Below are positions 4,034 through 51,453 of a stretch of DNA of 55,634 nt, in pieces. Location of the stretch: the NCBI GenBank assembly GCA_934215405.1, contig CAKPZU010000002.1, forward strand, positions 1 to 55,634, read 5' to 3'. The notes beneath the pieces are model-generated. The model ran no database searches. It had not been told where the DNA came from and worked only from the letters and a program-made list of their open reading frames with translations. The DNA is from an uncultured Bacilli bacterium (lineage in GTDB: Bacteria; Bacillota_I; Bacilli_A; RFN20; CAG-631). The translations under genes were made by a program, and so were the position numbers. Positions within the stretch are counted from its first letter, which is position 1. Every line of letters begins with the position of its first letter.

Positions 4034-4058
4034 ATTTACACCTATACTTTCTAAACCA

Positions 4059-4087
4059 ATTATACAAAGTATAACGAAATATGTCAA
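4059..4087 (-). promoter_or_regulatory. consensus sigma-70-type promoter TTGACA-N17-TATAAT for the HTH/ATPase gene
   Basis: The minus strand reads ttgaca tatttcgttatactttg tataat, with -35 at 4082-4087 and -10 at 4059-4064. The ATG at 4033 lies about 25 nt downstream. Confidence 0.6.
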
Positions 4088-4094
4088 ATTATTT

Positions 4095-4120
4095 TTCGTT
4101 TTCATTTCGTTTTCATTTCG
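4095..4120. repeat. 11-bp tandem repeat ttcgttttcat x2.4, part of a TTTCG/CGAAA motif cluster (4072-4150)
   Basis: Units at 4095-4105 and 4106-4116, with a partial unit at 4117-4120. There is also an inverted pair atttcgct/agcgaaat at 4115-4149. These are CG-containing motifs in an otherwise AT-rich spacer immediately upstream of the -35. Confidence 0.8.
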
Positions 4121-16846: not shown

Positions 16847-16876
16847 TTTACCACCCATCCGGAAAAATTTGTTTAG

Positions 16877-36195: not shown

Positions 36196-37402
36196 GTTCT
36201 TAGTAAAAAAATTTATAAAAAATTATGATGATGTTGAAAATGAATTAGTCCGTGAAAAATATGGCGTTTTAGGTGGAGTACTTGGCATTATTTGTAATCT
36301 ACTGTTATTTATTATTAAATTAGTAATAGGATTATTAGTCAATGCTATTGCTATCGTTTCTGATGCCTTTAATAATTTATCTGATTCTTTTTCTTCAATA
36401 GTTAGTGTAATATCAGCTAAGCTTTCAAATAAAAAGCCTGATAAGGAGCATCCATTTGGTCATGGTAGAATTGAGTATGTATCTACCCTTATAGTAGCTA
36501 TGATTATAGTTATCGTTGGCTTTGAGCTATTTATTACATCAGCGAAAAAAATACTTATTGGTATTCATTTAATTGATGGAATAATCGATACGTTAGCAAC
36601 TGGACCTTCTTTAATAATTTCAATAATTATTTTGGTTTTATCTTTATTTGTTAAGCTTTGGATGTATTATTATAATAAATATTTAGGAAATAAAATTAAT
36701 TCATCTATTTTAAAGGCTACTGCCGCTGATAGTATTTCTGATGTTTTAACATCCTTATCTATTATATTTGCAACCCTTATTGGCGGATTATTGTTAAAGG
36801 ATAATTATTTTTATTTAGATGGAGGAATAGGTATAGTAATTGCTATAATTATTTGTATAAATGGCTTTAAAATAGCTATTAATACAATTAGCGATTTACT
36901 TGGAAAGCCAGCTAGTAAGGAAGATATTGAAAAAATTAAAAATATTGTTTTAGCTAAAAAAGAAATAATTGGAATTCACGATTTAATGGTCCATAATTAT
37001 GGTGCTGGCAGAAAATTTGCTTCAGTACATGCTGAGGTTAATTCGAATTCCAATTTTATGGAAATACATGAAATAATTGATGAACTTGAACAAAAATGCT
37101 ATGAAAAAACACATATTGAGCTTGTTATTCATTTAGACCCAATTGATCTTGACTCAAAAGAGGTACAAGAAGCAAATAAGGTTATTGCTAATGTAATTGA
37201 AAAATATAGTGGTGTTTCCTATCATGATTTAAGAATAACAAATGGTAAGGAAAATATTAATGTTATATTTGATATTATTTTTCCATTCAATTATAAAATG
37301 GATGAAATTAAATATATACTTGATGAAATAAAAAAAGACGTAAAAAAAATCAATTCTAAGTACACCCTTGTAATTAGAATTGATCGTCCATTTGATAGTT
37401 AA
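36188..37402 (+). CDS. cation diffusion facilitator (CDF) family transporter
   Basis: TM helices with DAFNNLSD and HPFGHGRIEY motifs, and a C-terminal cytoplasmic domain (IHDLMVHNYG). It overlaps the GT2 gene by 8 nt. Confidence 0.85.
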   Translation: MIKFLVKKFIKNYDDVENELVREKYGVLGGVLGIICNLLLFIIKLVIGLLVNAIAIVSDAFNNLSDSFSSIVSVISAKLSNKKPDKEHPFGHGRIEYVSTLIVAMIIVIVGFELFITSAKKILIGIHLIDGIIDTLATGPSLIISIIILVLSLFVKLWMYYYNKYLGNKINSSILKATAADSISDVLTSLSIIFATLIGGLLLKDNYFYLDGGIGIVIAIIICINGFKIAINTISDLLGKPASKEDIEKIKNIVLAKKEIIGIHDLMVHNYGAGRKFASVHAEVNSNSNFMEIHEIIDELEQKCYEKTHIELVIHLDPIDLDSKEVQEANKVIANVIEKYSGVSYHDLRITNGKENINVIFDIIFPFNYKMDEIKYILDEIKKDVKKINSKYTLVIRIDRPFDS

Positions 37403-38109
37403 TTATTTTCTATTTTCTTACTTTTTATTATAAATGGTAAATGTAATAATGTCATTAAAACCATACCTGTTAAGACAAGTGATAAAAAGTAAATATACCA
37501 GCCATGATTTAAATTTAATATTGGTAAGCCATCTGCTGGTGGCCTTACTACAAAGAAAAAATTTGTATCATATATTTTTAAAGCGCCATTTCCCCATATC
37601 ATAATAAAGGCTAATGAAAGCAATGCTATAACATTTCTAAAATATGTTCTTAAATCTAAGCATACTTGCTTTGAAATAATTAAATATAAAGCATACCAAA
37701 CTAATATAGCATGGTAAATAAAGCATTGATATACCTCAGGATCTTTAAATGATACTCCACTTGTAGCAATTAATATAGCAAGTGTTCCTCCAATTATACC
37801 AATTGGTACAACAAAGCTTATTAGCTTATCCTTATATTTATCATTTTTAGAAAAAGCAATATAAAATATAACAAATATCAAAATAGAGCATAAATGAAGT
37901 GGTAATGCCGCAGGATCAATTACCATTCCTTTAGTAGTGCTGTCTATCATATGAGTTAATATTTTACTAATTTCACTAATTAATGCTACTATTGCCATAA
38001 TATATGAAGCAACCTTAATAGAAAATTTCTTCTTTAAAGCAACAAGTAATAATACAATAATTAATACTGCACAAATACCAAGCCAAATAAAATGATTAGT
38101 TGTAAACAT
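37399..38109 (-). CDS. integral membrane protein (possibly YwaF/TIGR02206-like)
   Basis: 236 aa with about 7 hydrophobic helices. The family assignment is from memory only. Its stop codon overlaps the convergent CDF stop. Confidence 0.5.
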   Translation of the reverse strand: MFTTNHFIWLGICAVLIIVLLLVALKKKFSIKVASYIMAIVALISEISKILTHMIDSTTKGMVIDPAALPLHLCSILIFVIFYIAFSKNDKYKDKLISFVVPIGIIGGTLAILIATSGVSFKDPEVYQCFIYHAILVWYALYLIISKQVCLDLRTYFRNVIALLSLAFIMIWGNGALKIYDTNFFFVVRPPADGLPILNLNHGWYIYFLSLVLTGMVLMTLLHLPFIIKSKKIENN

Positions 38110-38134
38110 AAATAGTCTCCTAAAATTTAAAATA

Positions 38135-38161
38135 AAAGAAAGATTTTTAACGCCTTTCTTT
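38135..38161 (-). terminator. possible terminator closing the rex-to-hydrogenase operon
   Basis: The stem aaagaaag (38135-38142) pairs with ctttcttt (38154-38161). On the minus strand it is followed by TTTTATTTTAAATTTT. The stem is AT-rich and weak. Confidence 0.4.
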
Positions 38162-38179
38162 TATTTTAATATTATTATT

Positions 38180-39604
38180 TTATTTTTTCAATATAGATAT
38201 AGTTTCTAGAATTGTTTTTTCAAAGGCTTCCTTACCATATTTATCTACTTCTGCTTTATTTTTCTCACCATGAGTTAAACATCCAGCACCGCCAATACAG
38301 CCACCAATACATGCCATACCTTCAATAAAGTTAGCATCAAGGGTATTTCTAGATTTTTGAAGCAACGCTTGACGGCAAGCCTCAATTCCATCACATGGAA
38401 CAGCCTTTAAATCAAATTGAATATTTTGTTCAAGTAAGCCTTCTTTTACAGCATCAGATAAGCCTCCACTTCTAGCAAAAATTCTTCCATAATAAGAAGC
38501 ATTATCTAATACATCTAAATCAAGAGTCGTAATATCAATATCCTTACTATCAAATAAAGCCTGTAATTCTTCAAAGGTAATTACTGAATCAACATACGGC
38601 TTAACCTCATCCTTTAATATTTCAGCCTTTTTAGCAGTACATGGTCCAATAAATACTACCTTACAAGCTCCTTCATGCTCTTTAATATATTTAGCAATTG
38701 TACCCATAGGCGATAAATTATGAGATACATATTGCTTTAAATCAGGGAATGTTTTTTCAATATATGCAACAAATGCTGGGCAGCAAGAACTAGTTAAAAA
38801 TCCTTTTTCTGCTAATTCTACTGATTCTTTTTGAGCAACCATATCAGCACCAAGTGCAGCTTCAATTACTGTATAGAAGCCAAGCTTTTTAAGTCCTGTA
38901 ATTACTTGTCCTAACTTAGCATATGTAAATTGACTTGAAATAGATGGAGCAACAACAGCAAATACCTTATAGGCTGTATTGTTATTACTCTTCTTTAGCA
39001 TATCAATTACATTTAAAATGTATGACTTATCCATTATAGCACCAAATGGACATTGATATACACAAGCGCCACATGAAATACATTTATTATTGTCAATGCA
39101 TGCTTGCTTTTCATCACCCATGCTAATTGCTTTTATTTTACAAGCAGTTTCACATGGCCTTTTATAATTGTGAATAGCGCTATAAGGACAAACACGAGCA
39201 CACATTCCACATTCCTTACATTTACTCTTATCAATATGAGCAACGTGATTTTCATCAAATGTAATTGCTCCAAATCTACAAGCATCCTCACATCTATGGG
39301 CTAAACAACCTCGACATGCATTAGTTACCTCATATCCACCCATTGGACATTCATCACAAGCTATATCAATAACTTCAATAACGTTGGGATTTTCAGTATT
39401 TCCGCCCATTGCAAGTTTTACACGTTCAGCTAAAATAGCTCTTTCCTTATAAACACAGCAACGCATTGTTGGAATTTTTCCAGGTACGATTCTTTTAGGA
39501 ATATCAATAGCTGTTGTGGCTAATTTATCTTCCCAGGCATCTTTTGCAACCTCGCGAAGTACTCTATATTTCAATAATTGTACTTTTGTATCAAATTTCC
39601 TCAT
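38180..39604 (-). CDS. [FeFe]-hydrogenase-family protein with multiple N-terminal Fe-S cluster motifs (group B-like by my recollection)
   Basis: The H-cluster motifs are TSSCCP (nt 38777-38794), FIGPCTAKKAE and EGMACIGGCIGGAGC. About 19 additional Cys lie in CxxCxxCxxxCP-type ferredoxin motifs upstream. Confidence 0.8.
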   Translation of the reverse strand: MRKFDTKVQLLKYRVLREVAKDAWEDKLATTAIDIPKRIVPGKIPTMRCCVYKERAILAERVKLAMGGNTENPNVIEVIDIACDECPMGGYEVTNACRGCLAHRCEDACRFGAITFDENHVAHIDKSKCKECGMCARVCPYSAIHNYKRPCETACKIKAISMGDEKQACIDNNKCISCGACVYQCPFGAIMDKSYILNVIDMLKKSNNNTAYKVFAVVAPSISSQFTYAKLGQVITGLKKLGFYTVIEAALGADMVAQKESVELAEKGFLTSSCCPAFVAYIEKTFPDLKQYVSHNLSPMGTIAKYIKEHEGACKVVFIGPCTAKKAEILKDEVKPYVDSVITFEELQALFDSKDIDITTLDLDVLDNASYYGRIFARSGGLSDAVKEGLLEQNIQFDLKAVPCDGIEACRQALLQKSRNTLDANFIEGMACIGGCIGGAGCLTHGEKNKAEVDKYGKEAFEKTILETISILKK

Positions 39605-39615
39605 TTTTCTTCCTC

Positions 39616-40788
39616 CTAAAAGTAACTAATTTTAACTTTCTTTCCCATTTGTCTTAAGCATTTTGATAAATCCTCAACTAAATTCATTTTAATACTAAAA
39701 TTAATTGGAAGATTAGGATTTTGATGAGCCGGATTAATAGCTCTACCTACATAAAAGTTAATATCAGTTGCTTCCTCAAACAACAATCTTGCGATAAGTG
39801 AAGCCCCATCATGTCCATAGCTCCACTTTTCATAATATTTATTTTCTCTTAATGAATCCTTAGCATATTCAAGAACCTTATTAATAGTAATAACACCTTC
39901 AGTTACTAAATCAACGCCTTCTATTTCAGCAATTGGAGGAACATCGCTTTCAACATATTGTAAGCTAGCCTTAATAGGCTTGTTTAAATACTTGGCAACT
40001 AATGATGATGTAGTTCCACCACAAACAATATGCTTTCCTTCCTTTGAGAAGAATAAAGCCATCATTTTGTTTGTATCATCCTTGTTAGCTGAAGGGCCAA
40101 ACAAAATATTCATTGGAACCCTTTGCTTTAATTTAATAACACAAGCAGTAGCATCATCACCAGGCTTATAACCATATAGCTTATTACATTCATCAACTAA
40201 AATAGTTGCATATGTTTTAGCACTATAGCCAGTTGGAGCTATTGCCTCCATAAAGGAAATAATATCTTCTCTTTTCCAGCCTAAATTATATTTAATTCCA
40301 AGTCCAGCATGAGGACAACCATCACTCATAGCAATAATTAAGTCACCCTCATATAGCTTAATATTTGATTTATAAATCTTTTTCCCACCAATAGTCATTT
40401 CAGTTTTTGAATAATCATAATTAACATTATCTCTTAATAAAATAACCTGTGGATTATCATATTGAATAATTTCAGCTTCTTTATTATCAATTATATGAAT
40501 AATTGTAAATGTTGAATAAGCAACACCTCTTACTGAACAAATTGGTAATGTGGCTGCAACTGTTTCAACACAATCCTCAAGTGATAAGCCTTCAGCCATT
40601 AAGGTTGAAATAATTTTTGAGGTTAATGTTGATAAAATACTAGCTTTAACACCACTGCCAAGTCCATCTGCTAAAACCACAACTGTTGAATCTTCATTTT
40701 TTTCGATAACATCTACGTGATCACCACATAGCTGTTCTCCACTATGGTTAATACTTTTATAACCTATATCAACGCATAAATCATTCAT
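39616..40788 (-). CDS. SpoIIE-family PP2C-type protein phosphatase with uncharacterised C-terminal domain
   Basis: It has the CGDHVD, ADGLGSGVKAS, MSDGC and GDDATAC motifs. About 170 further residues (VCGGTTS...DLVTEGV...) have no family I recognise. It overlaps the hydS stop by 8 nt (ATGAATGA). Confidence 0.8.
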   Translation of the reverse strand: MNDLCVDIGYKSINHSGEQLCGDHVDVIEKNEDSTVVVLADGLGSGVKASILSTLTSKIISTLMAEGLSLEDCVETVAATLPICSVRGVAYSTFTIIHIIDNKEAEIIQYDNPQVILLRDNVNYDYSKTEMTIGGKKIYKSNIKLYEGDLIIAMSDGCPHAGLGIKYNLGWKREDIISFMEAIAPTGYSAKTYATILVDECNKLYGYKPGDDATACVIKLKQRVPMNILFGPSANKDDTNKMMALFFSKEGKHIVCGGTTSSLVAKYLNKPIKASLQYVESDVPPIAEIEGVDLVTEGVITINKVLEYAKDSLRENKYYEKWSYGHDGASLIARLLFEEATDINFYVGRAINPAHQNPNLPINFSIKMNLVEDLSKCLRQMGKKVKISYF

Positions 40789-42457
40789 TTGAAATTGACT
40801 CCTTTAGCTTTGTTAAAGCAATTTTTGTTTCAGCAGCAGTTTCACCAAGAAGTGAAGCTATTTCTTGAACAATTCTCATTTGCTTATCAACAACCTTATC
40901 AGCAATTTCAACTGTTTGACGACTTATATTTTCTTTCTTTTCTTTTTCATTTTCTTCATCTGTCACATCACGAATAATACAAATAAGCAAGTGATATGTC
41001 TTATCATGAATTATTGTTTGTTCAACATATTTTTGATACTCAGTTAAATAAACTCTATTGTTTCTTACTTCTCCTTTATCTTCTAAAACATCTAAAAATA
41101 AAGAAGGGTCTAAAATTCTAACAACTGGTTCTCCTAATACATCAGAAGCTGAATTAATATTCATAATTCTTCTTGCTGCAGCATTAATTTGTTGAACCTC
41201 TAGGCTTTCATTTAATACTAATAAGCCATTTGGAGTATTATTAACTATACAATCAGAAAAGCTTTCAGCCTTCTCCTTTAAATATGGTAGACACATAGAA
41301 ATTTCAGCCTTACCTTGTAAAATAGCGATGGCCTTTTCACGACAAGTATCATAACCACATGAGCCACAATTTAATTCATCCTCTTTTTTAATTTTTCCCA
41401 TTTGACGTAAAACAGAGTTAATTTCCATTTCAGTTGGCTGAACTAGCTTTTTAGGAATTGGAGCAAATTGCTTTTTAACCTCATAGCTATTGGGTTGTAA
41501 TACTTGGAAATCCTTCTTTCCGGCATATTTTGAAATAGCAATATAATCCTTTACTAAAGAATGGTGCTGCTTTTCAATAATAGGGCCAGCAATGCAGCTT
41601 CCTACACAAGCAGACATTTCAATAAAGCAATTATGAATTAAGCCATTAGCTAAATCCTTTAAGGTTGAAATACAATTTTCAACGCCATCAATTGCTAAAT
41701 AAGTGTATTTTTTATTTTCTTTGGCCATTGTCTTTAAAATGCCACCAGTAGTTGGGAAAAATCTTGTTAATGTTTGATCATTATTATCAAGATTTTCTTT
41801 TAATTCAATATTTCTTTCATTTAACCATTTTGTTAATTCTTCAAATGTTAAAACAGCATCAACAATTCCTTCATAATATTCAGCCTCATCCTTTTTAGCA
41901 ACACAAGGGCCAATGAAAACAACCTTAGCATTTGGTATTCTTTTTTTAATATCTAATGCGTGTGCCTGCATTGGTGATAAAACATCAGCTAAATATGGAA
42001 GTTGCTGTGGAAAATATTTTTGAATTAGTAAATTAATAGAGTGACAGCAAGATGATATTACTACATCTCTATCCTCTTCATTTAAAATTCGATCATATTC
42101 TTTTTTTACAATTGTTGCCCCAATGGCTGTTTCTTCAACATCATAAAAGCCAAGTTGCTTTAAAGCATTTCTCATACCATTAATTCCAACATTTTCATAA
42201 TTAACAGCAAAAGAAGGAGCAAGGCTTACAACAATTGGATTATCAAGCTGAAGTAAAACCTTAACCTTTTCTATTTCACTTGTAATTTCTTTTGCATTTT
42301 GTGGGCAAACGACAAAACAATGACCACATAAAATGCATTCATTGTTTATAATATGAGCTTGATTAGCAGAAAATCTAATTGATTTAACTGGACAATGACG
42401 AATACATTTATAACAATTTTTACAATTAGATTTTTTTAATGTCAAACAATTAGACAT
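40781..42457 (-). CDS. hydS: putative sensory [FeFe]-hydrogenase (HydS-type, group C-like) with C-terminal PAS domain
   Basis: It has two N-terminal CxxCxxCxxxCP motifs. The H-domain variant motifs are SSCCH (nt 42041-42055), FIGPCVAKKDE and EMSACVGSC. An extra Cx2Cx4Cx16C motif spans C364-C389, followed by a PAS-like region at about residues 400-500. Confidence 0.82.
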   Translation of the reverse strand: MSNCLTLKKSNCKNCYKCIRHCPVKSIRFSANQAHIINNECILCGHCFVVCPQNAKEITSEIEKVKVLLQLDNPIVVSLAPSFAVNYENVGINGMRNALKQLGFYDVEETAIGATIVKKEYDRILNEEDRDVVISSCCHSINLLIQKYFPQQLPYLADVLSPMQAHALDIKKRIPNAKVVFIGPCVAKKDEAEYYEGIVDAVLTFEELTKWLNERNIELKENLDNNDQTLTRFFPTTGGILKTMAKENKKYTYLAIDGVENCISTLKDLANGLIHNCFIEMSACVGSCIAGPIIEKQHHSLVKDYIAISKYAGKKDFQVLQPNSYEVKKQFAPIPKKLVQPTEMEINSVLRQMGKIKKEDELNCGSCGYDTCREKAIAILQGKAEISMCLPYLKEKAESFSDCIVNNTPNGLLVLNESLEVQQINAAARRIMNINSASDVLGEPVVRILDPSLFLDVLEDKGEVRNNRVYLTEYQKYVEQTIIHDKTYHLLICIIRDVTDEENEKEKKENISRQTVEIADKVVDKQMRIVQEIASLLGETAAETKIALTKLKESISNE

Positions 42458-42470
42458 AATTATCTCCTTT

Positions 42471-42725
42471 TTAATTACCTAAAATAGGTAGAATTTTATC
42501 ATGCCAAAACATTTCAAAATTTTCTTTATTAATACCAGTATAAGTGCAACCATTGACTTCAATGGTTACACCTACACGATTACACTTTCCTAAGCAGAAG
42601 CTACCAGAAAGCTCAATTTTATCTTTCAAATTACCATTTTCAATTTTCTTTAGAATCATATCAATTAATTCCTCGGAGCCTTTTAAATGGCATGAACTAC
42701 CAACACAAATCTTAACTTCAACCAT
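42471..42725 (-). CDS. thioredoxin-like [2Fe-2S] ferredoxin (copy 2)
   Basis: 84 aa with the Cys pattern C-x4-C ... C-x3-C (CVGSSC ... CLGKC). It is a paralogue of the adjacent gene and lies 2 nt downstream of it. Confidence 0.68.
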   Translation of the reverse strand: MVEVKICVGSSCHLKGSEELIDMILKKIENGNLKDKIELSGSFCLGKCNRVGVTIEVNGCTYTGINKENFEMFWHDKILPILGN

Positions 42726-42727
42726 TT

Positions 42728-42970
42728 TTATACTCTTGGTAAAACTTCTTTTTCAAAGAAATCCTTAACTGTTTCAGGGCTTACTGAAAATAATTCATCA
42801 TTTACAGTAACACAAACACCTTGTTGACATTTACCCATACAGAATGTTCCACCAAGTTCAACTTTATCTTTTAAATTGTTTTTAGCAATTAAATATTGTA
42901 ATTGCTCAACTACTTGACGAGAACCTTTAATGTGACATGAACTACCAATACAAATTGTTACCTTTACCAT
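42728..42970 (-). CDS. thioredoxin-like [2Fe-2S] ferredoxin (copy 1)
   Basis: 80 aa with CIGSSC ... CMGKC, the same fold signature as copy 2. Confidence 0.68.
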   Translation of the reverse strand: MVKVTICIGSSCHIKGSRQVVEQLQYLIAKNNLKDKVELGGTFCMGKCQQGVCVTVNDELFSVSPETVKDFFEKEVLPRV

Positions 42971-42987
42971 TTTATTTGCTCCTTTAA

Positions 42988-43737
42988 TTATTCATAATCA
43001 ACAACTTTAGCCCAAGATAATAGGAATTCACGTTCTTCCTTATTACCTTTTACTGATTGAGATGCAGCAACGATTGGCATCCATTTTTGGATGTATTGCT
43101 TTGCTGTATTTGTCTTCTTGCAGAATAAATCTAAATATTCATTAGCGCCATCAATATCGCCAGCTAACCAGAATAATAAGTATGTTCTAGCTACATCAGC
43201 TGAAGCATTACCTTGAGTTGCATGAGACCAGTCTGTAACATATGCCTTACCATCATCACCAATAATGATATTTGATGGATTAAAGTCACCATGGCATAGC
43301 TTAGTGTGCTTTGGCATACCTTCAAGACGAGAATGTAAATCATAACGAGTTGTAGCATCTAAATCAGCTTGAGAGATTTTTCTATTCATTTTATCTTTAA
43401 GCTTAGTTAATAATGGACAGCTCTTAGATTGAACTTCAATTTGTAAATCAACAAATAATTCTAGATATTCATGCTTCTTTTCTGGGTTTTCTTTCATTAA
43501 TCTTTCAAGTGTTTTACCACTAATATAATTAGATACGATAGCCCATTTTCCATCAATAGTAGTTACCTCTTTTACATGAGGAATGTTTAAGCCAGTTTCT
43601 TCAACACGTGCTTGATTTAAAGCCTCATTTAAAATATCAGCTTTAGAAAAATCACTGTCAAAGACCTTAATGTAATTATCGCCGTCACGGTAAATAGTTT
43701 TATTATTTCTTACGGCAATTACTCTATCTAAGTTCAT
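42988..43737 (-). CDS. APH/choline-kinase-fold phosphotransferase (kinase-like)
   Basis: It has the catalytic loop LCHGDFNPSNIII, a metal-binding D in YVTDWS and a candidate ATP-binding Lys in NYIKVF. There is no Gly-rich loop. 249 aa. Confidence 0.72.
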   Translation of the reverse strand: MNLDRVIAVRNNKTIYRDGDNYIKVFDSDFSKADILNEALNQARVEETGLNIPHVKEVTTIDGKWAIVSNYISGKTLERLMKENPEKKHEYLELFVDLQIEVQSKSCPLLTKLKDKMNRKISQADLDATTRYDLHSRLEGMPKHTKLCHGDFNPSNIIIGDDGKAYVTDWSHATQGNASADVARTYLLFWLAGDIDGANEYLDLFCKKTNTAKQYIQKWMPIVAASQSVKGNKEEREFLLSWAKVVDYE

Positions 43738-43755
43738 ATTTATGCCTCCTTAAAA

Positions 43756-46431
43756 TTACTTACGAACTGATCTTTTTGATTTATTATCTTTATTATATTC
43801 TGGAATTGCTTTTTCTTCAAATGTTTTATTTCCATAATATGCATTTAAATACATTTGCTTAATTTCACTCATTAATGGGTAACGAGGGTTAGCACCTGTA
43901 CATTGATCATCAAATGCTTGTTCAACCATTTCATCAAGTTTTTCTAGGAAGTATGCTTCATCTGGAACATAATCTTTAATTGTTGGTTTAATTCCAACTC
44001 TTGCTTTTAATTCATCTATTGCTTTAATTAGATTATCTAATTTTTCTTGATCATTCTTTCCTTTAATTCCTAAATAATCAGCTACTTCTGCATAACGATG
44101 TAAAGTATGTGGATGATCATATTGAGGGAATGTTCCCATCTTTGCTGGTACCTCGGCTGCATTAAATCTTAATACTTCATCAAGCATTAAAGCGTTAGCA
44201 ACACCATGAGCAATGTGGTGGAAAGCACCAAGCTTATGAGCCATTGAGTGACATACACCTAAGAAAGCATTAGCAAATGCCATACCGGCCATAGTAGCTG
44301 CATTAGCCATTTTTTCTCTTGCTTCAACATCTGTTTGACCATTGTCATAAGCACGAGGTAAATATTCAAAGATTGTCTTTAATGATTTTAAAGCTAAGCC
44401 GTCTGTATAATCAGTTGCCATCATTGAAGCAATTGCTTCTAAGTTATGGCTTACAGCATCAATACCACTAGCAGCAGTTAAGCCTCTTGGAGCTGACATA
44501 TGGAAATCAGTATCAATAATAGCCATATTAGGTAATAATTCATAATCAGCAAGTGGATATTTAACATGGCTTACTTCATCTGTAATAACGGCAAATGGAG
44601 TAACCTCAGAACCAGTACCTGCAGATGTTGGAATAGCGATAAAGTATGCTTTTTCACCCATCTTAGGGAAAGTATATACACGTTTTCTAATATCCATGAA
44701 ACGCATAGCCATATCCATAAAGTCAACCTCTGGATGTTCATACATAACCCACATAATCTTACCAGCGTCCATTGCAGAACCACCACCTAATGCGATAATG
44801 CAATCAGGCTTAAATGTTCTCATTTGTTCAGCACCAGCTTTTGCACAAGCAAGTGTTGGATCTGGTTCTACATCGAAGAATGTAGTATGTTCGATTCCCA
44901 TTTGATCAAGCTTATCTGTAATTGGCTTTGTATAACCATGACTATATAAGAAATTATCTGTAACGATAAAGCATTTTTTCTTACCCATTACTGTCTTTAA
45001 TTCATCTAAAGCAACTGGTAAGCAACCTTTTTTAATATAAATCTTTTGTGGAGCTCTAAACCAAAGCATATTTTCTCTCCTTTCAGCTACTGTTTTAATA
45101 TTGATTAAATGCTTAACTCCAACGTTTTCACTAACTGAGTTTCCACCCCAGCTACCACAACCTAGTGTTAAAGATGGAGTTAATTTAAAGTTATATAAAT
45201 CACCAATACCACCTTGAGATGAAGGAGTATTAACTAAAATACGACATGTTTTCATTCTTTCTTCAAATTCAGCAAGCTTAGCTTGTTGAGTCTTAACATC
45301 TAAGTAAATTGAAGAAGTATGGCCATAGCCACCATCAGCGATTAAATGCTCAGCCTTGCTAAATGCATCTTCAATATCCTTTGCTTTATACATAGCTAGT
45401 ACTGGAGAAAGCTTTTCATGAGCAAATTCTTCTGAAATATCAACGCTTTCAACTTCACCAATTAAAATCTTAGTACCTTCTGGTACACTAACACCTGCTA
45501 AAGCAGCAATTTTTACTGGAGCTTGTCCAACGATTTTAGCATTTAAAGCGCCATTAATAATAATTGTTTTTCTAACTTTTTCAGTTTCTTCAGGATTTAA
45601 GAAGTAACAGCCTCTTTTAGCAAATTCTTCTTTTACCTTATCATAAACACCTTCAAGAACGATAACTGATTGTTCTGATGCACAAATCATACCATTATCA
45701 AAAGTTTTACTATGAATAATTGAGTTAACAGCTAAAATGATATTAGCAGAATCATCAATAATTGCAGGAGTATTACCAGCTCCAACACCAAGTGCTGGTT
45801 TTCCACTACTATAAGCAGCCTTAACCATACCAGGTCCACCTGTTGCTAAAATAATATCTGCTTCCTTCATTAATAAATTAGTCATTTCAAGAGATGGAAT
45901 ATCAATCCAACCAATAATGCCTTCTGGTGCTCCAGCTTTTACTGCAGCCTCAAGTACAACCTTTGCAGCAGCAATTGTTGAATTCTTAGCTCTTGGATGT
46001 GGACTAATAATAATACCATTTCTTGTCTTTAAAGAAATTAAAGTCTTAAAAATAGCTGTTGAGGTTGGGTTTGTTGTTGGAATAACAGCAGCAACTAAGC
46101 CAATTGGCTCAGCAATCTTTTTAATACCATAAGCAGTATCTTCTTCTAATACTCCACAAGTCTTAACATGACGATAAGCATTGTAGATATATTCAGCTGC
46201 ATAATGGTTCTTAATAATTTTATCTTCTACGACACCCATTCCAGTTTCTTCAACTGCTAGCTTTGCAAGAGGAATTCTCATCTTATCTGCAGCACAAGCG
46301 GCAGCAAAGAAAATCTTATCAACTTGTTCTTGTGTGTAAGTAGCAAAAACTTCTTGAGCCTTTCTAACTCTTGCTATTGCCTTTTCAAGAGCTTCAACAC
46401 CATCTACTATTTCATATTTTTTTTCTTCCAT
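43756..46431 (-). CDS. adhE: bifunctional acetaldehyde-CoA/alcohol dehydrogenase
   Basis: An N-terminal aldehyde dehydrogenase domain is followed by a C-terminal iron-type alcohol dehydrogenase (ALGGGSAMDAGK, CHSMAHKLGAFHHIAHG). The start is set at MEEKKYEIV behind the RBS GGAGAG. The ORF extension to 46473 would overlap rex. Confidence 0.95.
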   Translation of the reverse strand: MEEKKYEIVDGVEALEKAIARVRKAQEVFATYTQEQVDKIFFAAACAADKMRIPLAKLAVEETGMGVVEDKIIKNHYAAEYIYNAYRHVKTCGVLEEDTAYGIKKIAEPIGLVAAVIPTTNPTSTAIFKTLISLKTRNGIIISPHPRAKNSTIAAAKVVLEAAVKAGAPEGIIGWIDIPSLEMTNLLMKEADIILATGGPGMVKAAYSSGKPALGVGAGNTPAIIDDSANIILAVNSIIHSKTFDNGMICASEQSVIVLEGVYDKVKEEFAKRGCYFLNPEETEKVRKTIIINGALNAKIVGQAPVKIAALAGVSVPEGTKILIGEVESVDISEEFAHEKLSPVLAMYKAKDIEDAFSKAEHLIADGGYGHTSSIYLDVKTQQAKLAEFEERMKTCRILVNTPSSQGGIGDLYNFKLTPSLTLGCGSWGGNSVSENVGVKHLINIKTVAERRENMLWFRAPQKIYIKKGCLPVALDELKTVMGKKKCFIVTDNFLYSHGYTKPITDKLDQMGIEHTTFFDVEPDPTLACAKAGAEQMRTFKPDCIIALGGGSAMDAGKIMWVMYEHPEVDFMDMAMRFMDIRKRVYTFPKMGEKAYFIAIPTSAGTGSEVTPFAVITDEVSHVKYPLADYELLPNMAIIDTDFHMSAPRGLTAASGIDAVSHNLEAIASMMATDYTDGLALKSLKTIFEYLPRAYDNGQTDVEAREKMANAATMAGMAFANAFLGVCHSMAHKLGAFHHIAHGVANALMLDEVLRFNAAEVPAKMGTFPQYDHPHTLHRYAEVADYLGIKGKNDQEKLDNLIKAIDELKARVGIKPTIKDYVPDEAYFLEKLDEMVEQAFDDQCTGANPRYPLMSEIKQMYLNAYYGNKTFEEKAIPEYNKDNKSKRSVRK

Positions 46432-46447
46432 ATTAACTCTCCTTTTT

Positions 46448-47059
46448 TTATATATTTGCTGCAAGTGCGGCAAGCGATGCAGCCATATTTTCTTCTTTTA
46501 CCTTGACATTTTCAGGAACCTTTAATTTTACTGGTGAAAAGTTCCATATTGCCTTTATGTTTAAAGATACTAACAAATCACATATTGCTTGAGCATCTTT
46601 TTCACCAACAGTAATGATACCAATTGAGATATCTTCTTTTTTACAATACTCTTTTAAATCACTAAGTGGAAAGACATTTGTTCTATTAAATGAACCATTA
46701 TAATTAATTTCAAATTTAGCTTTTATAAAAATATTATATTCACTAAAGCTTTCATCTAATAATAATGCACTATCGAAATGACTACCACCAACTATTATTG
46801 CGTTTTTCATTTTAACACAATCTAATGCTTCCATAATCTTCATTACTAGCTCATTCTTGTTATAACCAATTTTAGGTTTCCCTGTGCCACTTACCATTGC
46901 TAAATCTTTTCTAACTAAAACTTCGCCATATCCTACAATTTTTGCAAGTTTAACTGAAGACACCATTTCATTATCTTTAAACATATCTGATTTCAAATAG
47001 TGTAAATAAGTTGGTAATCTTTCTATAACAGATTTAGGAATTTTCTTTTCGCACATCAT
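46448..47059 (-). CDS. rex: Rex-like redox-sensing transcriptional repressor with atypical dinucleotide loop
   Basis: It has the N-terminal winged-helix signature IPKSVIERLPTYLHYL and Rossmann-like C-terminal domain length and order. The glycine loop reads VGGSHFD (nt 46772-46789) instead of GxGxxG. The RBS AAGGAGGG is upstream. The start may be the second ATG (47056). Confidence 0.78.
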   Translation of the reverse strand: MMCEKKIPKSVIERLPTYLHYLKSDMFKDNEMVSSVKLAKIVGYGEVLVRKDLAMVSGTGKPKIGYNKNELVMKIMEALDCVKMKNAIIVGGSHFDSALLLDESFSEYNIFIKAKFEINYNGSFNRTNVFPLSDLKEYCKKEDISIGIITVGEKDAQAICDLLVSLNIKAIWNFSPVKLKVPENVKVKEENMAASLAALAANI

Positions 47060-47083
47060 ATCCCTCCTTACCTTATCGATATA

Positions 47084-47112
47084 ATTATATCTATTTATTT
47101 AAGTAATTTGAA
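47084..47112 (-). promoter_or_regulatory. candidate promoter TTCAAA-N17-TATAAT upstream of rex
   Basis: The minus strand reads ttcaaa ttacttaaataaataga tataat, with -10 at 47084-47089 and -35 at 47107-47112. Confidence 0.4.
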
Positions 47113-47161
47113 ATATTTATTTTTTATATGGGTATATCAAAAAATATATACCTTGAAATAA

Positions 47162-47710
47162 CTAGCCACTTAATTCTTTAATATTTATAATATTCATATC
47201 TAAATCTTTGAAGATGATTTTTCCATTTTCTAAGATTATATAACCATTATATGAATTATTTTTAGGGATGGAAACAGATCCTGGATTTATAAAGTATATC
47301 CCATTTTGTTTAATAAATTCAGGAACATGTGTATGGCCAAATAAAACAACATCGTTTTCTTTAATAGGAGGTAGGTTATCCTTATTATAGACATGTCCAT
47401 GTGTTAAATAAATCAAATGATTATTATTTTCAATTACTCCATATGTTGCAAGGAGTGGAAAGTTTAAAACCATTTGATCAACCTCACTATCGCAATTTCC
47501 TCGAACACAAATTATTTTTGTTGTTAAAGAATTTAATACCTCAATTACTTTTTTGGGATTATAATCCTTTGGCAAATCATTTCTTGGGCCATGATATAAA
47601 ATATCGCCAAGCAAAACTAAATAATCGGCTTTTTCATTTTTAAGTGCTTCAACCATTTTAGTACAATAAAAAGCAGAGCCATGAATATCTGATGCTATAA
47701 AATATTTCAT
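47162..47710 (-). CDS. YfcE-like metallophosphoesterase (MJ0936 family phosphodiesterase)
   Basis: It has the SDIHGS, LGDILYHGPRN, RGNCD and GHTH motifs. The start is set at MKYFIASD behind the RBS AAGGAG. Confidence 0.8.
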   Translation of the reverse strand: MKYFIASDIHGSAFYCTKMVEALKNEKADYLVLLGDILYHGPRNDLPKDYNPKKVIEVLNSLTTKIICVRGNCDSEVDQMVLNFPLLATYGVIENNNHLIYLTHGHVYNKDNLPPIKENDVVLFGHTHVPEFIKQNGIYFINPGSVSIPKNNSYNGYIILENGKIIFKDLDMNIINIKELSG

Positions 47711-47723
47711 TGTTTTTCTCCTT

Positions 47724-48647
47724 TTACATATACATTCTTTTAGATTCACATAAAGATGAGATAAAATCTAAATCGAGCTTTGTTAATCTATAGCTTTTTC
47801 GATAAATCATAACATCTTTATAAACCTTATTGTTATCTTCACATTCTTTAATAACTAAGCCATAACGATCTAATGTTGATTTTGGAACTGGAGATACAAA
47901 CATAAAAGCATTTAGGTTTTTAGAAAGTATTTCAAATTGACTAGCCCTTTCAAAAACAAAAATTCTTTTTTTAATAGAATCTTGAAATTCTTCTTTTCTA
48001 ACAGTTGAAAAAACAAGAGATGGAACATATGGATCACCATGGGCAACTTCAATATAATCATCTAAGTCTTTAAATGATAATTTTTTCTTTTTAGCAAGCG
48101 GTGAATCCTTATTAACAATTAATACATATTTAAATTCTGTTACTAATTCACTATTAAAGCCTTTTTCATCAAGCATTTGCTTATAATATTTATCATAATT
48201 TTCAGCATATCTAATAATTCCTAAATTATAGCCATCCTCAAGCAGGTTTTTTAATGTTCTTGAGGAATTTGTTTCCTTATATAAAACCTCAACATTATTT
48301 TCTTTTGCTATTTGTAATGAAAAGTTAGAGAAAGCCTCTCCTATATAAGAAGCCCTTGGAACCGAAATTGAAAATTTTCTTTTTGAGTTTTCGCCATCTT
48401 TAAAAAGTTCTTCAACATCATCAATTTCCTTTAATATTCTTTTACCATATTGAATTAATTTTTCACCATCTGGAGTTAAAGTCATCCCTTTAGCATTCCT
48501 ATCAAAAATAGTAATGCTTAATTCTTTTTCAAGTTCTTTTATGGCTCTCGTTAAGTTTGGCTGAGCAATATATAACTGTTCAGCAGCCTTATTTATCGAT
48601 CCACTTTTAGCTATTTCAACAGCATATTTTAGATACTTAATATTCAT
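47724..48647 (-). CDS. LysR-family transcriptional regulator
   Basis: It has the N-terminal HTH SINKAAEQLYIAQPNLTRAIKELE and a substrate-binding-domain-sized C-terminus. 307 aa. Confidence 0.85.
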   Translation of the reverse strand: MNIKYLKYAVEIAKSGSINKAAEQLYIAQPNLTRAIKELEKELSITIFDRNAKGMTLTPDGEKLIQYGKRILKEIDDVEELFKDGENSKRKFSISVPRASYIGEAFSNFSLQIAKENNVEVLYKETNSSRTLKNLLEDGYNLGIIRYAENYDKYYKQMLDEKGFNSELVTEFKYVLIVNKDSPLAKKKKLSFKDLDDYIEVAHGDPYVPSLVFSTVRKEEFQDSIKKRIFVFERASQFEILSKNLNAFMFVSPVPKSTLDRYGLVIKECEDNNKVYKDVMIYRKSYRLTKLDLDFISSLCESKRMYM

Positions 48648-48754: not shown

Positions 48755-50179
48755 TTAAGCTAATGGTAGTGTTGCTGAAAAAATTGTTAAATTATTTTTC
48801 CTTTCATATGTTAATGTACCATGCATTGATTCAATAGCTGTTTTTGCTAAAAACAATCCTAATCCTGAATTGTTTTCTGTTGTATTTTCAGAAACAAATG
48901 GATCAAAAATATTTTTATCTATTGTAATACCTTTTCCATCATCTATAATATCAATTTTACATATTCCTTTTTTCTTTGAAACAATAACATCTAAATTAGA
49001 GCAATATGAATGTTCAATTGCATTTAAGATTAAATTGATTATTACACTTTCTAAAGCTCTTTCTTTAGCATATACATATAGCTTATCAGGAAATGTAACA
49101 TTTAGAATAATGCCATTAGCTTCACAATCAGGTCTTAAATCATCAGTTACCCTATAAATCATTTGGCTTAAATCTAATATTTTCGACTGCTCAGCAATAT
49201 AGTTTTGTTTTCCATATTTTCCAACATCAGCAAAATCCTTTTTTAGTTCTTCACTTTTTTGTAATATATAATTTATCTTCTCTGTATATTCCTTTCCTAT
49301 TAATGATTGTTTTAAATCAATCAAGGAGCTATACATCACAACAGCTGTTTTTTTCATATCATGACTTATATATAATAATAGCTTATCACGTTCATTAAGA
49401 ACATTTTGTAAACTTAATGTTTGCTTTTCAACCTCATTTTCAAGGTTAGTTGTAAGATAGCGATTTCGAATTTCAATGGATGTAAATTCACTAAAGCCTA
49501 AAACAATTGTAATGCAAAGCATTATGATACAAAGCCAATATTTTTCAGACAAAACGATTAAAGGAAGTATTTTATTATTAGTAAATAAGGAAGATGCTAA
49601 AAAGCAAGCAATTATTCCGTTTAATCTTAAGCCTAATGATTTTCCTTTAAGTATATCATAAGCTGATAATGCAGCTACAATTACTATGTTAATTATCGTT
49701 AAAGCCATATAGAAGACATATAAAAATGAGTGCACACTAACATTCATACATAATGGTAAGGCGAATGCTAATAGACTAGTGATAGATGAAATGGCAATTG
49801 ATATATAAAACACAGGAATTTTCCTGATTTTTTTAGGAAAATAAAGCATAGAAATTAAAAGCATAATGTTTATAGAAAAATAACGAATTCCAAGAAGAAC
49901 ATATGGAATGCTTGATAAATTAAATAATAAATAAGTAGTAAACATCAATGCAAAAATACTAGTAGCATATAGTAATTGAGGAATAAATGTAAGTGAATGC
50001 TTTAAGATACAAATAAAAACGAACATCAAAAATGTTCCAACGCCAATTGCAGCTCCAGCAAATAAAAAAGAGCGATTTGTTGAAGTCATTTTCCTTATTA
50101 AAGAATCTTCTCCAATTAATATTTCATCTTCAATTCCAATATAATTATCATTATCAGTTTCGTAATGAATAGTTACCAT
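48755..50179 (-). CDS. sensor histidine kinase, 7-TM plus HisKA/HATPase_c portion (downstream fragment of an interrupted gene)
   Basis: It has seven hydrophobic helices, the H-box ISHDMKKT, the N-box LILNAIEHS, and the DDGKGI and GLGLFLAKT motifs. No convincing RBS precedes this ATG. Confidence 0.8.
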   Translation of the reverse strand: MVTIHYETDNDNYIGIEDEILIGEDSLIRKMTSTNRSFLFAGAAIGVGTFLMFVFICILKHSLTFIPQLLYATSIFALMFTTYLLFNLSSIPYVLLGIRYFSINIMLLISMLYFPKKIRKIPVFYISIAISSITSLLAFALPLCMNVSVHSFLYVFYMALTIINIVIVAALSAYDILKGKSLGLRLNGIIACFLASSLFTNNKILPLIVLSEKYWLCIIMLCITIVLGFSEFTSIEIRNRYLTTNLENEVEKQTLSLQNVLNERDKLLLYISHDMKKTAVVMYSSLIDLKQSLIGKEYTEKINYILQKSEELKKDFADVGKYGKQNYIAEQSKILDLSQMIYRVTDDLRPDCEANGIILNVTFPDKLYVYAKERALESVIINLILNAIEHSYCSNLDVIVSKKKGICKIDIIDDGKGITIDKNIFDPFVSENTTENNSGLGLFLAKTAIESMHGTLTYERKNNLTIFSATLPLA

Positions 50180-50257: not shown

Positions 50258-50767
50258 TTAATCATCATATTTTGAAGCTGATGAAAATCCCGTATAATAG
50301 GCAATATTATACTTATCTATTGAACCAACATAGGCTTTATTTTGATATTGGACATATACACTGCAGCTTGAAAAAATAATCGGTATATACATTGTTAAAT
50401 GCAAGTTTCCATCAGGCTTTAATAAATAATCTAAGCTTTTAACATTGTTCCATTCATTATCTAATAAAGTATCAATATAAAAGCGGTATATCCCTTTTTT
50501 TGAAGCTTTTTGTTTTGCATTACTATTAGATACCATTTCATCCATTCCAGCAAATTCATCCGCCAAATAATTAACTGATGTCATTTTCATGACCTTATTT
50601 ATATCTAAAATTGAAACAGTATTTACTGTTGTATTGGATATTTCTTTTACTTTAATTGGTGTTTCACTAATATAATTTTCCCTTAAAAGGCCCAAGCTAC
50701 CGGAAAATGTCACACAAAAAAGGGCTAAAATCAGTAAAATAAGTAAGTGTAAATAATTTTTCTTCAT
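50258..50767 (-). CDS. signal peptide plus N-terminal half of a 7TMR-DISMED2-like extracellular sensor domain (upstream fragment)
   Basis: The start forms an ATGA overlap with the response-regulator stop. LHLTMYIPIIFSSCSVYV resembles the DISMED2 core. The fragment ends at the TAA at 50258-50260, in the same frame as the kinase ORF. Confidence 0.6.
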   Translation of the reverse strand: MKKNYLHLLILLILALFCVTFSGSLGLLRENYISETPIKVKEISNTTVNTVSILDINKVMKMTSVNYLADEFAGMDEMVSNSNAKQKASKKGIYRFYIDTLLDNEWNNVKSLDYLLKPDGNLHLTMYIPIIFSSCSVYVQYQNKAYVGSIDKYNIAYYTGFSSASKYDD

Positions 50768-51453
50768 GATATATCTCCCACAAAGCAATACCCTTTATTA
50801 AATTCTGTGTGAATAATATCACATGTAGGTAATACTGCCTTTAATTTTCTTCTTAAAGATGATAAATGAGCCCGAATTGTTGTCGTATGTAGGCTTGGAG
50901 CACACCAAATTTGCTCATATATTTCATCAGCTGTAAAATATTTTCCTTTATTTTTTACTAAAAAGAACAAAATATTAAATTCTGATGGAGTTAGCGAAAC
51001 AGGCATATTTTTACATTTTACAACTCTAGTATTAGCATTTATAGAAAAGCAACCAAATTCTTGCTTAGCATCCTCCTTTGGTAAAAGTCGTAAAGCTATA
51101 TGAGCTTGTAAAACCCTCATAGTACATGGTTTAACTATATAGTCAATAGCTCCAGATGTAAGGCCTTTTACTACTATATCTTCACTATCTAATGATGACA
51201 TAATAATTACTGGAGGTAGCATTAGATTTTGTGAAAGCAAATCCATTCCCATGCTATTTTTTAAAACTAGATCCAAAACTATAGCATCAAGATTATCTTC
51301 ATGAGTTAATATATCAACAGCTTCATCAATTGAAGATGCGCTAAAAACTATATTTGATTTAGAAAAATAAGAAACCATTTCTTCCTTTAGCTTTATATCA
51401 TCTTCTACAAATAATAATTTTCTTCCACTAACTGTATAATCCATATATATCAT
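50764..51453 (-). CDS. OmpR/PhoB-type response regulator
   Basis: It has the receiver-domain motifs LLFVEDD and VLDLVL, and a C-terminal winged helix (LTPSEFNILFFL, TIRAHLSSLRRKL). Confidence 0.85.
   Translation of the reverse strand: MIYMDYTVSGRKLLFVEDDIKLKEEMVSYFSKSNIVFSASSIDEAVDILTHEDNLDAIVLDLVLKNSMGMDLLSQNLMLPPVIIMSSLDSEDIVVKGLTSGAIDYIVKPCTMRVLQAHIALRLLPKEDAKQEFGCFSINANTRVVKCKNMPVSLTPSEFNILFFLVKNKGKYFTADEIYEQIWCAPSLHTTTIRAHLSSLRRKLKAVLPTCDIIHTEFNKGYCFVGDIS

Follow-up and report, generated by a model that had tools for sequence, protein, structure and literature searches.

What would a gut bacterium gain from placing a candidate hydrogen sensor, a kinase-like protein, a phosphatase and a redox repressor beside the enzymes that dispose of its electrons, and how far can the wiring of such a set be read from DNA? 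The question is raised by eight genes (rex, adhE, a kinase-fold gene, fdA, fdB, hydS, a PP2C phosphatase gene and hydA2) in a stretch of 55,634 nucleotides (nt) from an uncultured Bacilli bacterium (contig CAKPZU010000002.1, assembly GCA_934215405.1). This whole stretch is hereafter called the window, and coordinates refer to it. An initial annotation, made from the sequence, had proposed that the block is an unusually compact and testable circuit in which H2 acts through the hydrogenase-like sensor HydS and a kinase/PP2C pair on Rex or AdhE. Judged by homology and colinearity, the block is real and coherent and is a copy of the published Ruminococcus albus-type operon, and its arrangement is not new. 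We consider it likely that the block is an R. albus-type 'high-H2 fermentation' operon, in which two electron sinks are combined with their own HydS-centred control module. What goes beyond the literature that we could read is only a variant of Rex and an operator-like element linked to a LysR-family gene. The genes of the block, in their order of reading, and the hairpin behind them are as follows.

46448..47059, minus strand: Rex-family regulator with a degenerate NAD(H)-binding loop (PF06971 and PF02629; NCBIfam NF003994)
43756..46431, minus strand: AdhE, bifunctional acetaldehyde-CoA/alcohol dehydrogenase, 891 amino acids (aa), ATG start (Aldedh, Fe-ADH and ADH_Fe_C)
42988..43737, minus strand: APH/RIO-like kinase-fold protein, 249 aa (PF01636, RIO1; motifs HGDFNPSN and DWS)
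42728..42970, minus strand: ferredoxin A (FdA), thioredoxin-like [2Fe-2S] protein, 80 aa, Cx4Cx31Cx3C (PF01257, 33.4 bits)
42471..42725, minus strand: ferredoxin B (FdB), thioredoxin-like [2Fe-2S] protein, 84 aa, Cx4Cx31Cx3C (PF01257, 28.4 bits)
40781..42457, minus strand: HydS, putative sensory group C (phosphatase-linked) [FeFe]-hydrogenase (Pfam, cysteine motifs, alignment)
39616..40788, minus strand: SpoIIE/PP2C phosphatase (residues 1-222; PF07228) with an alpha/beta C-terminal domain (residues 225-390)
38180..39604, minus strand: HydA2, HfsD-like monomeric group B [FeFe]-hydrogenase (TIGR04105; motifs TSSCCP, GPCTAKK and EGMACIGGCIGG)
38127..38169, minus strand: intrinsic-terminator-like hairpin of 17 bp, AT-rich, with a flanking U-run, 3' of the last gene

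The eight open reading frames lie head to tail on the minus strand between 38180 and 47059. Their intergenic distances, from rex to hydA2, are 16, 18, 17, 2, 13, -8 and 11 nt, exactly as first described, and an AGGAG-type ribosome-binding site precedes seven of the eight genes, with a weak one before fdB, the second ferredoxin gene. The domain assignments of the initial annotation were all reproduced by Pfam: Put_DNA-bind_N and CoA_binding in Rex, Aldedh and Fe-ADH in AdhE, APH/RIO1 in the kinase, 2Fe-2S_thioredx in both ferredoxins, SpoIIE in the phosphatase, two Fer4 domains and Fe_hyd_lg_C in the product of the last gene, and Fer4, Fe_hyd_lg_C, FeS (PF04060) and a weak PAS domain in HydS. 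The PAS match is marginal, falling just below the gathering threshold (PF00989, 21.4 versus 22.6 bits; PAS_9, 18.2-21.6 versus 27 bits). The hairpin with a T-run that had been seen after the last gene also stands, at -14.5 kcal/mol (z -4.15), and none of 200 shuffled sequences gave an equally stable fold. Gaps of at most 18 nt and a single terminator-like hairpin are compatible with one transcription unit; internal terminators are unlikely, a judgement whose sole ground is the size of the gaps. From this layout we infer that the block is co-transcribed in the window organism.

A tblastn search of plasmid records with HydS identified a 68%-identical protein on megaplasmid pRUMAL01 of Ruminococcus albus 7. 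Positions 138999-147916 of that plasmid (NC_014824.1) carry the same eight-gene order and strand as the window block, with nearly equal spacings that include the 8-nt overlap of hydS and the phosphatase gene. The R. albus annotation reads, in order, LysR, Rex, AdhE, phosphotransferase, two (2Fe-2S) ferredoxins, [Fe-Fe] hydrogenase large subunit, SpoIIE phosphatase and 4Fe-4S dicluster protein. Identities between the window and R. albus 7 are 75% for AdhE (WP_013483407), FdA and PP2C, 73% for the kinase and HydA2, and 68% for HydS; they are lower for LysR (WP_013483405; 56%), FdB (48%) and Rex (WP_013483406; 38%). Zheng et al. are said to have been the first, in 2014 (reportedly J Bacteriol 196:3840), to propose HydS as an H2 sensor in the R. 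albus cluster. Greening et al. (2019, ISME J, PMC6776011) report that the R. albus "putative eight-gene cluster" was 111-fold down in co-culture with an H2 consumer and that the sensor, the hydrogenase and adhE are transcribed together. Passages of later literature that cite the original study give HydA2 transcripts in R. albus as 90-fold lower when H2 is removed. The proposed unit of H2 sensor, phosphatase, kinase, Rex, AdhE and hydrogenase thus matches a published cluster, while its novelty, the role of Rex as sole DNA-binding protein and the strength of the Rex-adhE link did not hold up. The initial annotation had correctly named kinase, phosphatase and Rex as neighbours of HydS in R. albus; it overlooked that adhE belongs to the same unit, and for this reason the arrangement looked new.

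The module is widespread. HydS relatives with at least 74% identity number in the thousands in metagenomes, and a scan with one genome per species found a HydS relative in more than 580 species. The best 80 loci of these more than 580 species, with HydS 70-76% identical, were taken as a census sample; the hosts are Oscillospiraceae, Acutalibacteraceae, Ruminococcus and unclassified Clostridia metagenome-assembled genomes from human and herbivore guts. Window proteins were placed in the loci by tblastn, and gene content was counted where the sequence extended 6.8 kb or more upstream of hydS, which was the case in 46 loci. A core of Fd, HydS, PP2C and HydA2 is present in every census locus, and kinase, adhE and rex are optional. 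The full series rex-adhE-kinase-Fd-Fd-hydS occurs in 16/46 loci, a rex-less version in 12/46, and 18/46 loci are without adhE. The neighbourhood census that the initial annotation had proposed thus finds rex and adhE attached to the block in 16/46 loci, and an arrangement published for R. albus and shared by 16 of 46 related species is hardly the unusually compact version that had been claimed. Counted singly, 35 of the 46 loci have the kinase, 32 have a LysR gene upstream, 28 have adhE and 20 have rex. The four-gene core layout is seen in Monoglobus and in 8-10 of the 46 loci.

Conservation differs along the block. Median identity across the loci is 76% for the kinase, 75% for FdA and 72-84% for the enzymes, versus 51% for FdB, which evolves faster than FdA and is missing from some loci, and 40% for Rex, the least conserved protein of the block. 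The 8-nt overlap between hydS and the PP2C gene was found without exception in 73/73 loci, and this invariance speaks for coupled translation of the two genes and for HydS and PP2C as partners in a fixed stoichiometry.

We then asked whether HydS has the features of a sensor. Its H-domain (PF02906, 171.9 bits) carries the invariant H-cluster ligands C138, C185, C284 and C288, which in an alignment with group A enzymes fall on the motifs TSCCP, MPC and CxxxC; at the level of sequence HydS thus does not show the inability to bind an H-cluster that the initial annotation had named as a ground for refutation. Eight N-terminal cysteines are enough for two [4Fe-4S] clusters, and C364, C367, C372 and C389 form a Cx2Cx4Cx16C cluster (PF04060, 42.4 bits). 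Two second-sphere changes, M353->G and M497->S, are visible in the motifs IGPCVAKK and EMSACVGSC, versus VMPCIGKK and EVMACPGGC of 8a6t; the same changes are reported for the low-activity HydS of Thermotoga maritima (TmHydS; reviews PMC11376134, PMC8163306). The proton-relay cysteine at the position of CpI C299, described in these reviews as not conserved in sensory subclasses, is kept in the window clade (SSCCHS versus TSCCPS; residues 134-140, window 42040-42060) and lost from a 38%-identical Acetoanaerobium homologue (TSSCPS). Several HydS homologues carry precomputed PF00989 matches, and behind the PAS-like region lies a helical C-terminal tail of about 60 residues (500-558; window 40781-40960, minus strand; DKQMR[IV][VA]QEIASLLGETAAETKI) that is nearly unchanged even in the 38%-identical homologue. 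This tail is a candidate docking or output element. A search of PDB sequences with HydS returned no solved group C hydrogenase, the top matches being group A enzymes (E 3e-20). The adjacent SpoIIE-family phosphatase gene agrees with a HydDB-type definition of the phosphatase-linked C3 class, and we regard HydS as a putative group C (C3) sensory [FeFe]-hydrogenase.

The phosphatase appears catalytically intact. PF07228 was matched with 58.8 bits, the metal-binding motifs GD, DGLGSG, SDG and GDDAT are all kept, and an AF2 model (pTM 0.83) matched SpoIIE (5mqh, E 3e-12), RsbX and RssB in Foldseek, a list dominated by the phosphatase domain. The C-terminal alpha/beta domain (residues 225-390, about 165 residues; window 39616-40110, minus strand), which contains the motifs CGGTTS and GVDLVTEG, gave nothing in Pfam or PDB sequences at E values up to 10. 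Most of its columns are invariant in 20 homologues (78-92% identical), and nearly all of the homologues listed are exactly 390 aa long. The kinase matches PF01636 (36.5 versus 23.2 bits) and RIO1 (29.5 versus 22 bits); no Hanks-type Pkinase domain was found in it by Pfam, and it belongs to the APH/RIO/choline-kinase clan, not to the Hanks-type or GHKL kinases. Its closest solved relative is a choline kinase (4r77, E 1e-4), and matches to StkP have E values near 3e-3 over 30 residues. HydA2 scores 563.3 bits against TIGR04105 (FeFe_hydrog_B1; cut-off 450) over residues 4-445 and contains the H-cluster motifs TSSCCP, GPCTAKK and EGMACIGGC; by these marks the last gene of the block encodes a monomeric group B [FeFe]-hydrogenase.

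Which regulators could act on the block? The initial annotation had named Rex as its only DNA-binding protein. A LysR-family gene lies upstream on the same strand, however, and LysR is found in 32/46 loci versus 20/46 for rex. The features of the promoter region are the following.

47724..48647, minus strand: LysR-family transcriptional regulator (Pfam/NCBIfam LysR-type matches, below specific equivalog cut-offs)
47162..47710, minus strand: YfcE-type phosphodiesterase gene, 13 nt after lysR (NCBIfam NF006988, 227.8 versus 117 bits)
47131..47152, minus strand: palindrome GGTATAT-N8-ATATACC, just upstream of the -35 (inverted repeat, 7/7 arms)
47084..47112, minus strand: sigma-70-type promoter-like element TTCAAA-N17-TATAAT (consensus match, positional conservation)
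47075..47094, minus strand: 20-bp palindrome ATAGATATAA/TTATATCGAT overlapping the -10 (arms 90% complementary)

The LysR homologues (43-63% identical) lie upstream on the same strand in the 32 census loci and in R. albus 7, and the top sub-threshold NCBIfam matches of the window protein are the overflow-metabolism regulators CidR, GltC, AlsR and CcpC. The yfcE gene stands between or next to lysR and rex in just five related loci and is a variable passenger; two of these, L012 and L035, have the lysR-yfcE-rex arrangement of the window. The promoter-like element upstream of rex is present as described, at 47112-47084, but it is not the only one: a consensus scan of 37300-47800 gave 51 promoter-like sites, versus 56.6 +/- 6.9 in shuffled sequences, and one of them (TTGAAG-N17-TATAAT, 43820-43792) is found 54 nt ahead of the kinase gene. 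In DNA of 27% GC such sites occur at chance frequency, which makes hexamer matching uninformative, and a consensus scan for terminators was no more informative. The rex-proximal promoter is supported instead by comparison, because a weak -35 (TTCCCA/TTCCGT; TTCAAA in the window) and the -10 keep their positions in the related loci and in L090, a sister lineage discussed below.

Upstream of this promoter, many loci share an operator-like element, TATATCGATA-N6/7-ATAyCGATAT. R. albus has the palindrome TATATCGATA-N6-ATATCGATAT, of which GGTATAT-N8-ATATACC in the window is a shortened variant. An nhmmer model of the element matches the window at 47116-47153 and gave 38 matches with E<=1 in 1.33 Mb, almost all of them either 88-165 nt ahead of the first gene of the operon or immediately behind lysR. 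The element occurs in 25/32 LysR-linked loci versus 2/14 LysR-less loci, an association whose Fisher tests ignore shared ancestry and are indicative only, the seeds of the model having been drawn from the same loci. It is conserved in L090 as well. The pattern suggests that the upstream palindrome is probably a LysR operator and that the promoter is activator-dependent. Between L090 and the window, a 25-nt stretch around the -10, AAATAGATATAATTATATCGATAAG, which includes the 20-bp palindrome, is identical, whereas the spacer between -35 and -10 has diverged. The 20-bp palindrome may be a repressor site, which is speculative, or may have arisen by chance in AT-rich DNA. We also considered whether a double box, TATCGATA, is specific to rex-first operons and thus the operator of the operon-borne Rex; this was rejected, since degenerate versions occur in LysR-bearing adhE-first and Fd-first loci. 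Two loci carry the operator-like element twice, after lysR and upstream of rex, with 4-5 kb between the copies (L052, 2863-2900 and 7782-7821; L062, 855-892 and 4825-4858). Four Fd-first, LysR-less blocks (L038, L058, L069 and L081) have a different palindrome upstream, TGTCAA(T/C)ATTTGAC, at a distance of about 120-170 nt from the first ferredoxin gene, which suggests another regulator in those species.

The Rex protein of the window belongs to its family by every model applied (PF06971, 52.2 versus 27 bits; PF02629, 38.3 versus 22.3 bits; NF003994, 195.8 versus 130 bits), and it aligns along its length with solved Rex proteins (2vt2, E 3e-25). At the GxGxxG site, where solved Rex proteins have GVGNLG (B. 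subtilis), GAGNLG or GCGNIG, it has GGSHFD, and FE replaces FD after beta-2. R. albus 7 has GAGKLG, and GAGxLG is kept in 23/23 other operon-linked Rex proteins compared. The lone other degenerate Rex found, P0122 (L090, 10001-10603), is 66% identical to the window protein and reads GKDTFA; it is encoded in a lysR-rex-adhE locus of another organism of about 25% GC. The DNA-binding domain and the C-terminal helix of Rex are conserved. The exact window protein is found on 13 contigs from separate gut metagenomes, so the variant is not an assembly error. Judging from these features, it looks like a functional Rex-family protein that is blind to NADH.

A search for the canonical Rex box (TTGTKAA-N4-TTMACAA) with up to two mismatches gave none in the 37-49 kb interval and seven in the whole window, versus 5.7 expected; the 330 nt upstream of rex hold no match at up to three mismatches and one, 265 nt upstream, at four. 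Among relatives, the canonical box (TGTTAAAATATTAACA) lies over the -10 in 12/14 adhE-first loci versus 3/24 rex-first loci: an operon-borne rex and a Rex box over the -10 form a mutually exclusive pattern. It is the same box, TTGTTAAnnnnTTAACAA, that marks Rex-repressed adhE promoters of Clostridia and Thermoanaerobacter, whereas the window block contains none at up to two mismatches. With its NAD(H) motif degenerate and no canonical Rex box close to the block, Rex is tied less firmly to adhE in the window than in relatives, and the classical Rex-adhE connection on which the initial annotation relied is its least secure element here.

Altogether, these results are consistent with the following scheme. 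At high H2, AdhE would re-oxidise NADH by making ethanol, and the monomeric, ferredoxin-dependent group B hydrogenase would re-oxidise ferredoxin. The control module would consist of HydS, its translationally coupled PP2C, the APH-like kinase, the two [2Fe-2S] carriers and the Rex-family protein. H2 would bind at the H-cluster of HydS, and the redox state would be relayed through the Cx2Cx4Cx16C cluster to the PAS domain and C-terminal helix, changing the activity of a HydS-bound PP2C. PP2C and kinase together would set the phosphorylation state of some target, and at high H2 the operon would thereby be more strongly expressed or more active. Transcription would start from the weak-(-35) promoter upstream of rex, probably in an activator-dependent manner through the palindrome and LysR; rex-less relatives would use the same promoter with a canonical Rex box over the -10. 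The window contributes homology, colinearity, intact cofactor and catalytic motifs and conserved cis-elements to this scheme, and R. albus contributes regulation of about 100-fold that depends on an H2 partner. We infer every step of the signal path, and the LysR assignment with it; H2 dependence in the window organism would follow by homology to R. albus only. According to reviews and genetic studies published up to 2026, it is unknown how group C [FeFe]-hydrogenases pass on their signal.

Several observations weigh against this scheme. Rex in the window is without a GxGxxG motif and has no canonical operator nearby. Among the products of the block Pfam shows no STAS-type protein or other obvious substrate for phosphorylation, and the kinase, being of the APH/choline-kinase type, may act on a small molecule. 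PP2C is present and a cis-encoded kinase missing in 11/46 loci. Block versions that start at the kinase or at Fd occur elsewhere with their own promoters; because of these versions, and because promoter-like hexamers occur at chance density, internal promoters are conceivable. The retained C299-equivalent cysteine makes catalytic turnover of HydS conceivable, and the limits on the LysR association were given above.

Three other explanations, which are not mutually exclusive, have to be set beside these points. HydS, PP2C, the ferredoxins and the group B enzyme could form one working 'Hfs hydrogenase' complex, with HydS catalytic or electron-channelling and the operon a metabolic module under Rex/LysR. 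The Thermoanaerobacterium literature does treat hfsABCD as the main ferredoxin-linked hydrogenase, with HfsABC perhaps functional without HfsD (PMC5707799, PMC11837493), and the proton-relay cysteine of HydS, a top family model that is group B (206.6 bits), strict translational coupling and a constant core order would all suit a stoichiometric complex. However, the M353->G and M497->S changes are those tied to very low activity in TmHydS, deletion of hfsB raised rather than lowered hydrogenase activity while adhE expression went up, and a PAS domain with an intact PP2C active site is hard to explain in a purely catalytic assembly; we consider such a complex unlikely. It is doubtful, if somewhat easier to entertain, that conventional regulators only (LysR and Rex, in cis or in trans) drive transcription and that the HydS-PP2C-kinase set acts post-translationally on AdhE or the group B hydrogenase. 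The LysR-linked palindrome at the promoter and the canonical Rex box over the -10 in Rex-less relatives fit this idea, as does the kinase accompanying adhE in 28/28 blocks that contain adhE, although the kinase also occurs in seven loci without adhE. In T. saccharolyticum, hfs deletions altered NADH-linked alcohol dehydrogenase (NADH-ADH) and not NADH-ALDH activity, a result that its authors interpreted as post-transcriptional regulation. In R. albus, nevertheless, transcripts of the cluster change roughly 100-fold, and this calls for some input related to H2; Rex could provide it indirectly by sensing NADH/NAD+, but the window Rex looks NADH-blind.

The phospho-switch itself would be wrong for the kinase/PP2C pair if the 'kinase' were a small-molecule phosphotransferase, acting on a metabolite or cofactor, or a passenger of adhE with no functional tie to PP2C. 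This we hold to be rather improbable, though not far-fetched. The protein is an APH-family member (PF01636) whose nearest NCBIfam and PDB relatives, all weak, are TIGR02172, Bud32, thiamine and choline kinases and aminoglycoside phosphotransferases; in RefSeq the R. albus orthologue bears no more specific name than 'phosphotransferase', and the 11 kinase-less loci that keep PP2C point the same way. Yet the kinase is among the highly conserved proteins of the block and, when present, always comes immediately before the ferredoxin genes that lead up to hydS; the APH/RIO/Bud32/CotS clan contains genuine protein kinases; and the HGDxxxxN and D-W-S catalytic motifs are intact, though they do not tell substrate types apart.

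A bolder variant of the H2-sensing scheme concerns Rex. In the lineage of the window and its sister, Rex might have lost NAD(H) sensing, kept DNA binding and been re-wired to a phosphorylation-controlled or HydS/PP2C-bound output of the H2 sensor. The former glycine loop of the degenerate pair contains Ser or Thr (GGSHFD, GKDTFA), and in the window-type promoter the Rex box may, on this proposal, have been swapped for the conserved -10 palindrome. We regard the proposal as very improbable; if true, it would supply the output that has long been sought for a sensory hydrogenase of group C.

How does the control module compare with known systems? The hfsABCD genes of Thermoanaerobacterium (Shaw 2009; Eminoglu 2017, PMC5707799; PMC11837493; T. 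saccharolyticum and T. thermosaccharolyticum) resemble the window core in encoding, in the same order, a small Fe-S protein, a PAS-hydrogenase (HfsB, corresponding to HydS), a serine phosphatase (HfsC) and HfsD (corresponding to HydA2), an equivalence taken from statements in the literature. They also have a genetic link to adhE expression, which rises upon deletion of hfsA or hfsB (PMC5707799, PMC11837493), but in Thermoanaerobacterium adhE, rex and any kinase lie elsewhere on the chromosome, whereas in the window they are fused to the core. TmHydS (Chongdar 2018; PMC11376134, PMC8163306), by its published description, shares with window HydS two [4Fe-4S] clusters, the H-domain, the Cx2Cx4Cx16C cluster and, if the marginal match in the window protein is accepted, PAS; the window protein differs in keeping the cysteine at the C299 position and in its extra conserved 60-residue helical tail. 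The HoxBC-HoxJ-HoxA system of Cupriavidus necator (Ralstonia eutropha) follows the same logic, a low-activity H2-sensing hydrogenase controlling hydrogenase genes through phosphorylation and a PAS-containing partner. It differs in being built on [NiFe], an unrelated metalloenzyme family, in using a histidine kinase and response regulator and not PP2C with an APH-like kinase, and in controlling H2 uptake in aerobes and not fermentative electron sinks. With SpoIIE/RsbU partner-switching the window shares the SpoIIE-family PP2C, but no Pfam match to STAS, the domain of the substrate, or to HATPase_c, that of the GHKL kinase, was found among the eight block proteins; HATPase_c is present nearby solely in a membrane histidine kinase encoded upstream of lysR.

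The surroundings of the block look like an ordinary chromosome. Flanking genes encode an AddAB-like helicase/nuclease, a ClpB-like ATPase, melibiase, formate-tetrahydrofolate ligase, YfhO, a CDF transporter and a two-component system; no hydEFG maturase genes were seen among them, and a search of the window with Rfam gave no match. The two-component system is the membrane histidine kinase (48755-50179, minus strand) together with an OmpR-type response regulator (50764-51453, minus strand), directly upstream of lysR. R. albus 7, a rumen isolate of 44% GC, likewise has a LysR-family gene upstream of the block; the yfcE gene inserted between lysR and rex is peculiar to the window in this comparison. 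Whereas the R. albus copy lies on a mobilizable megaplasmid, the window copy looks chromosomal, in a gut organism of 27% GC. The block (38180-47059) has 32.5% GC, compared with 26.2% outside it in the window, and its AdhE reaches 89% identity to proteins from species with a much higher GC content. Together with the plasmid location in R. albus, this makes lateral transfer of the module plausible. Beyond the terminator-like hairpin, a gene at 37399-38109 (minus strand) encodes a TMEM164-related membrane acyltransferase-like protein (70.3 bits versus a cut-off of 75) and is found beside the block in no related locus. Paralogous AAA_14/DUF4143 ATPase genes (15536-16858, minus strand; 21299-22630, plus strand) lie on either side of the ClpB-like gene, and an AAA-ATPase_like/PD-(D/E)XK protein with a helix-turn-helix domain is encoded near the window start (2189-4105, minus strand); genes of these kinds are typical of mobile or defence-associated ATPases.

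Sensing of H2 and the switch between acetate plus H2 and ethanol underlie interspecies hydrogen transfer in the gut and rumen as well as the engineering of ethanol yield. The window locus opens the question of the H2 signal no further than R. albus 7 or Thermoanaerobacterium do, and, belonging to an uncultured organism, it is less testable than either, contrary to what had been expected of it. What it offers are leads for these cultured models: a fixed core, to which kinase, adhE and rex may or may not be added; a LysR protein with an operator-like element, so far not considered as an output; the exclusivity of operon-borne rex and the Rex box; and a natural Rex variant without the NAD(H) loop.

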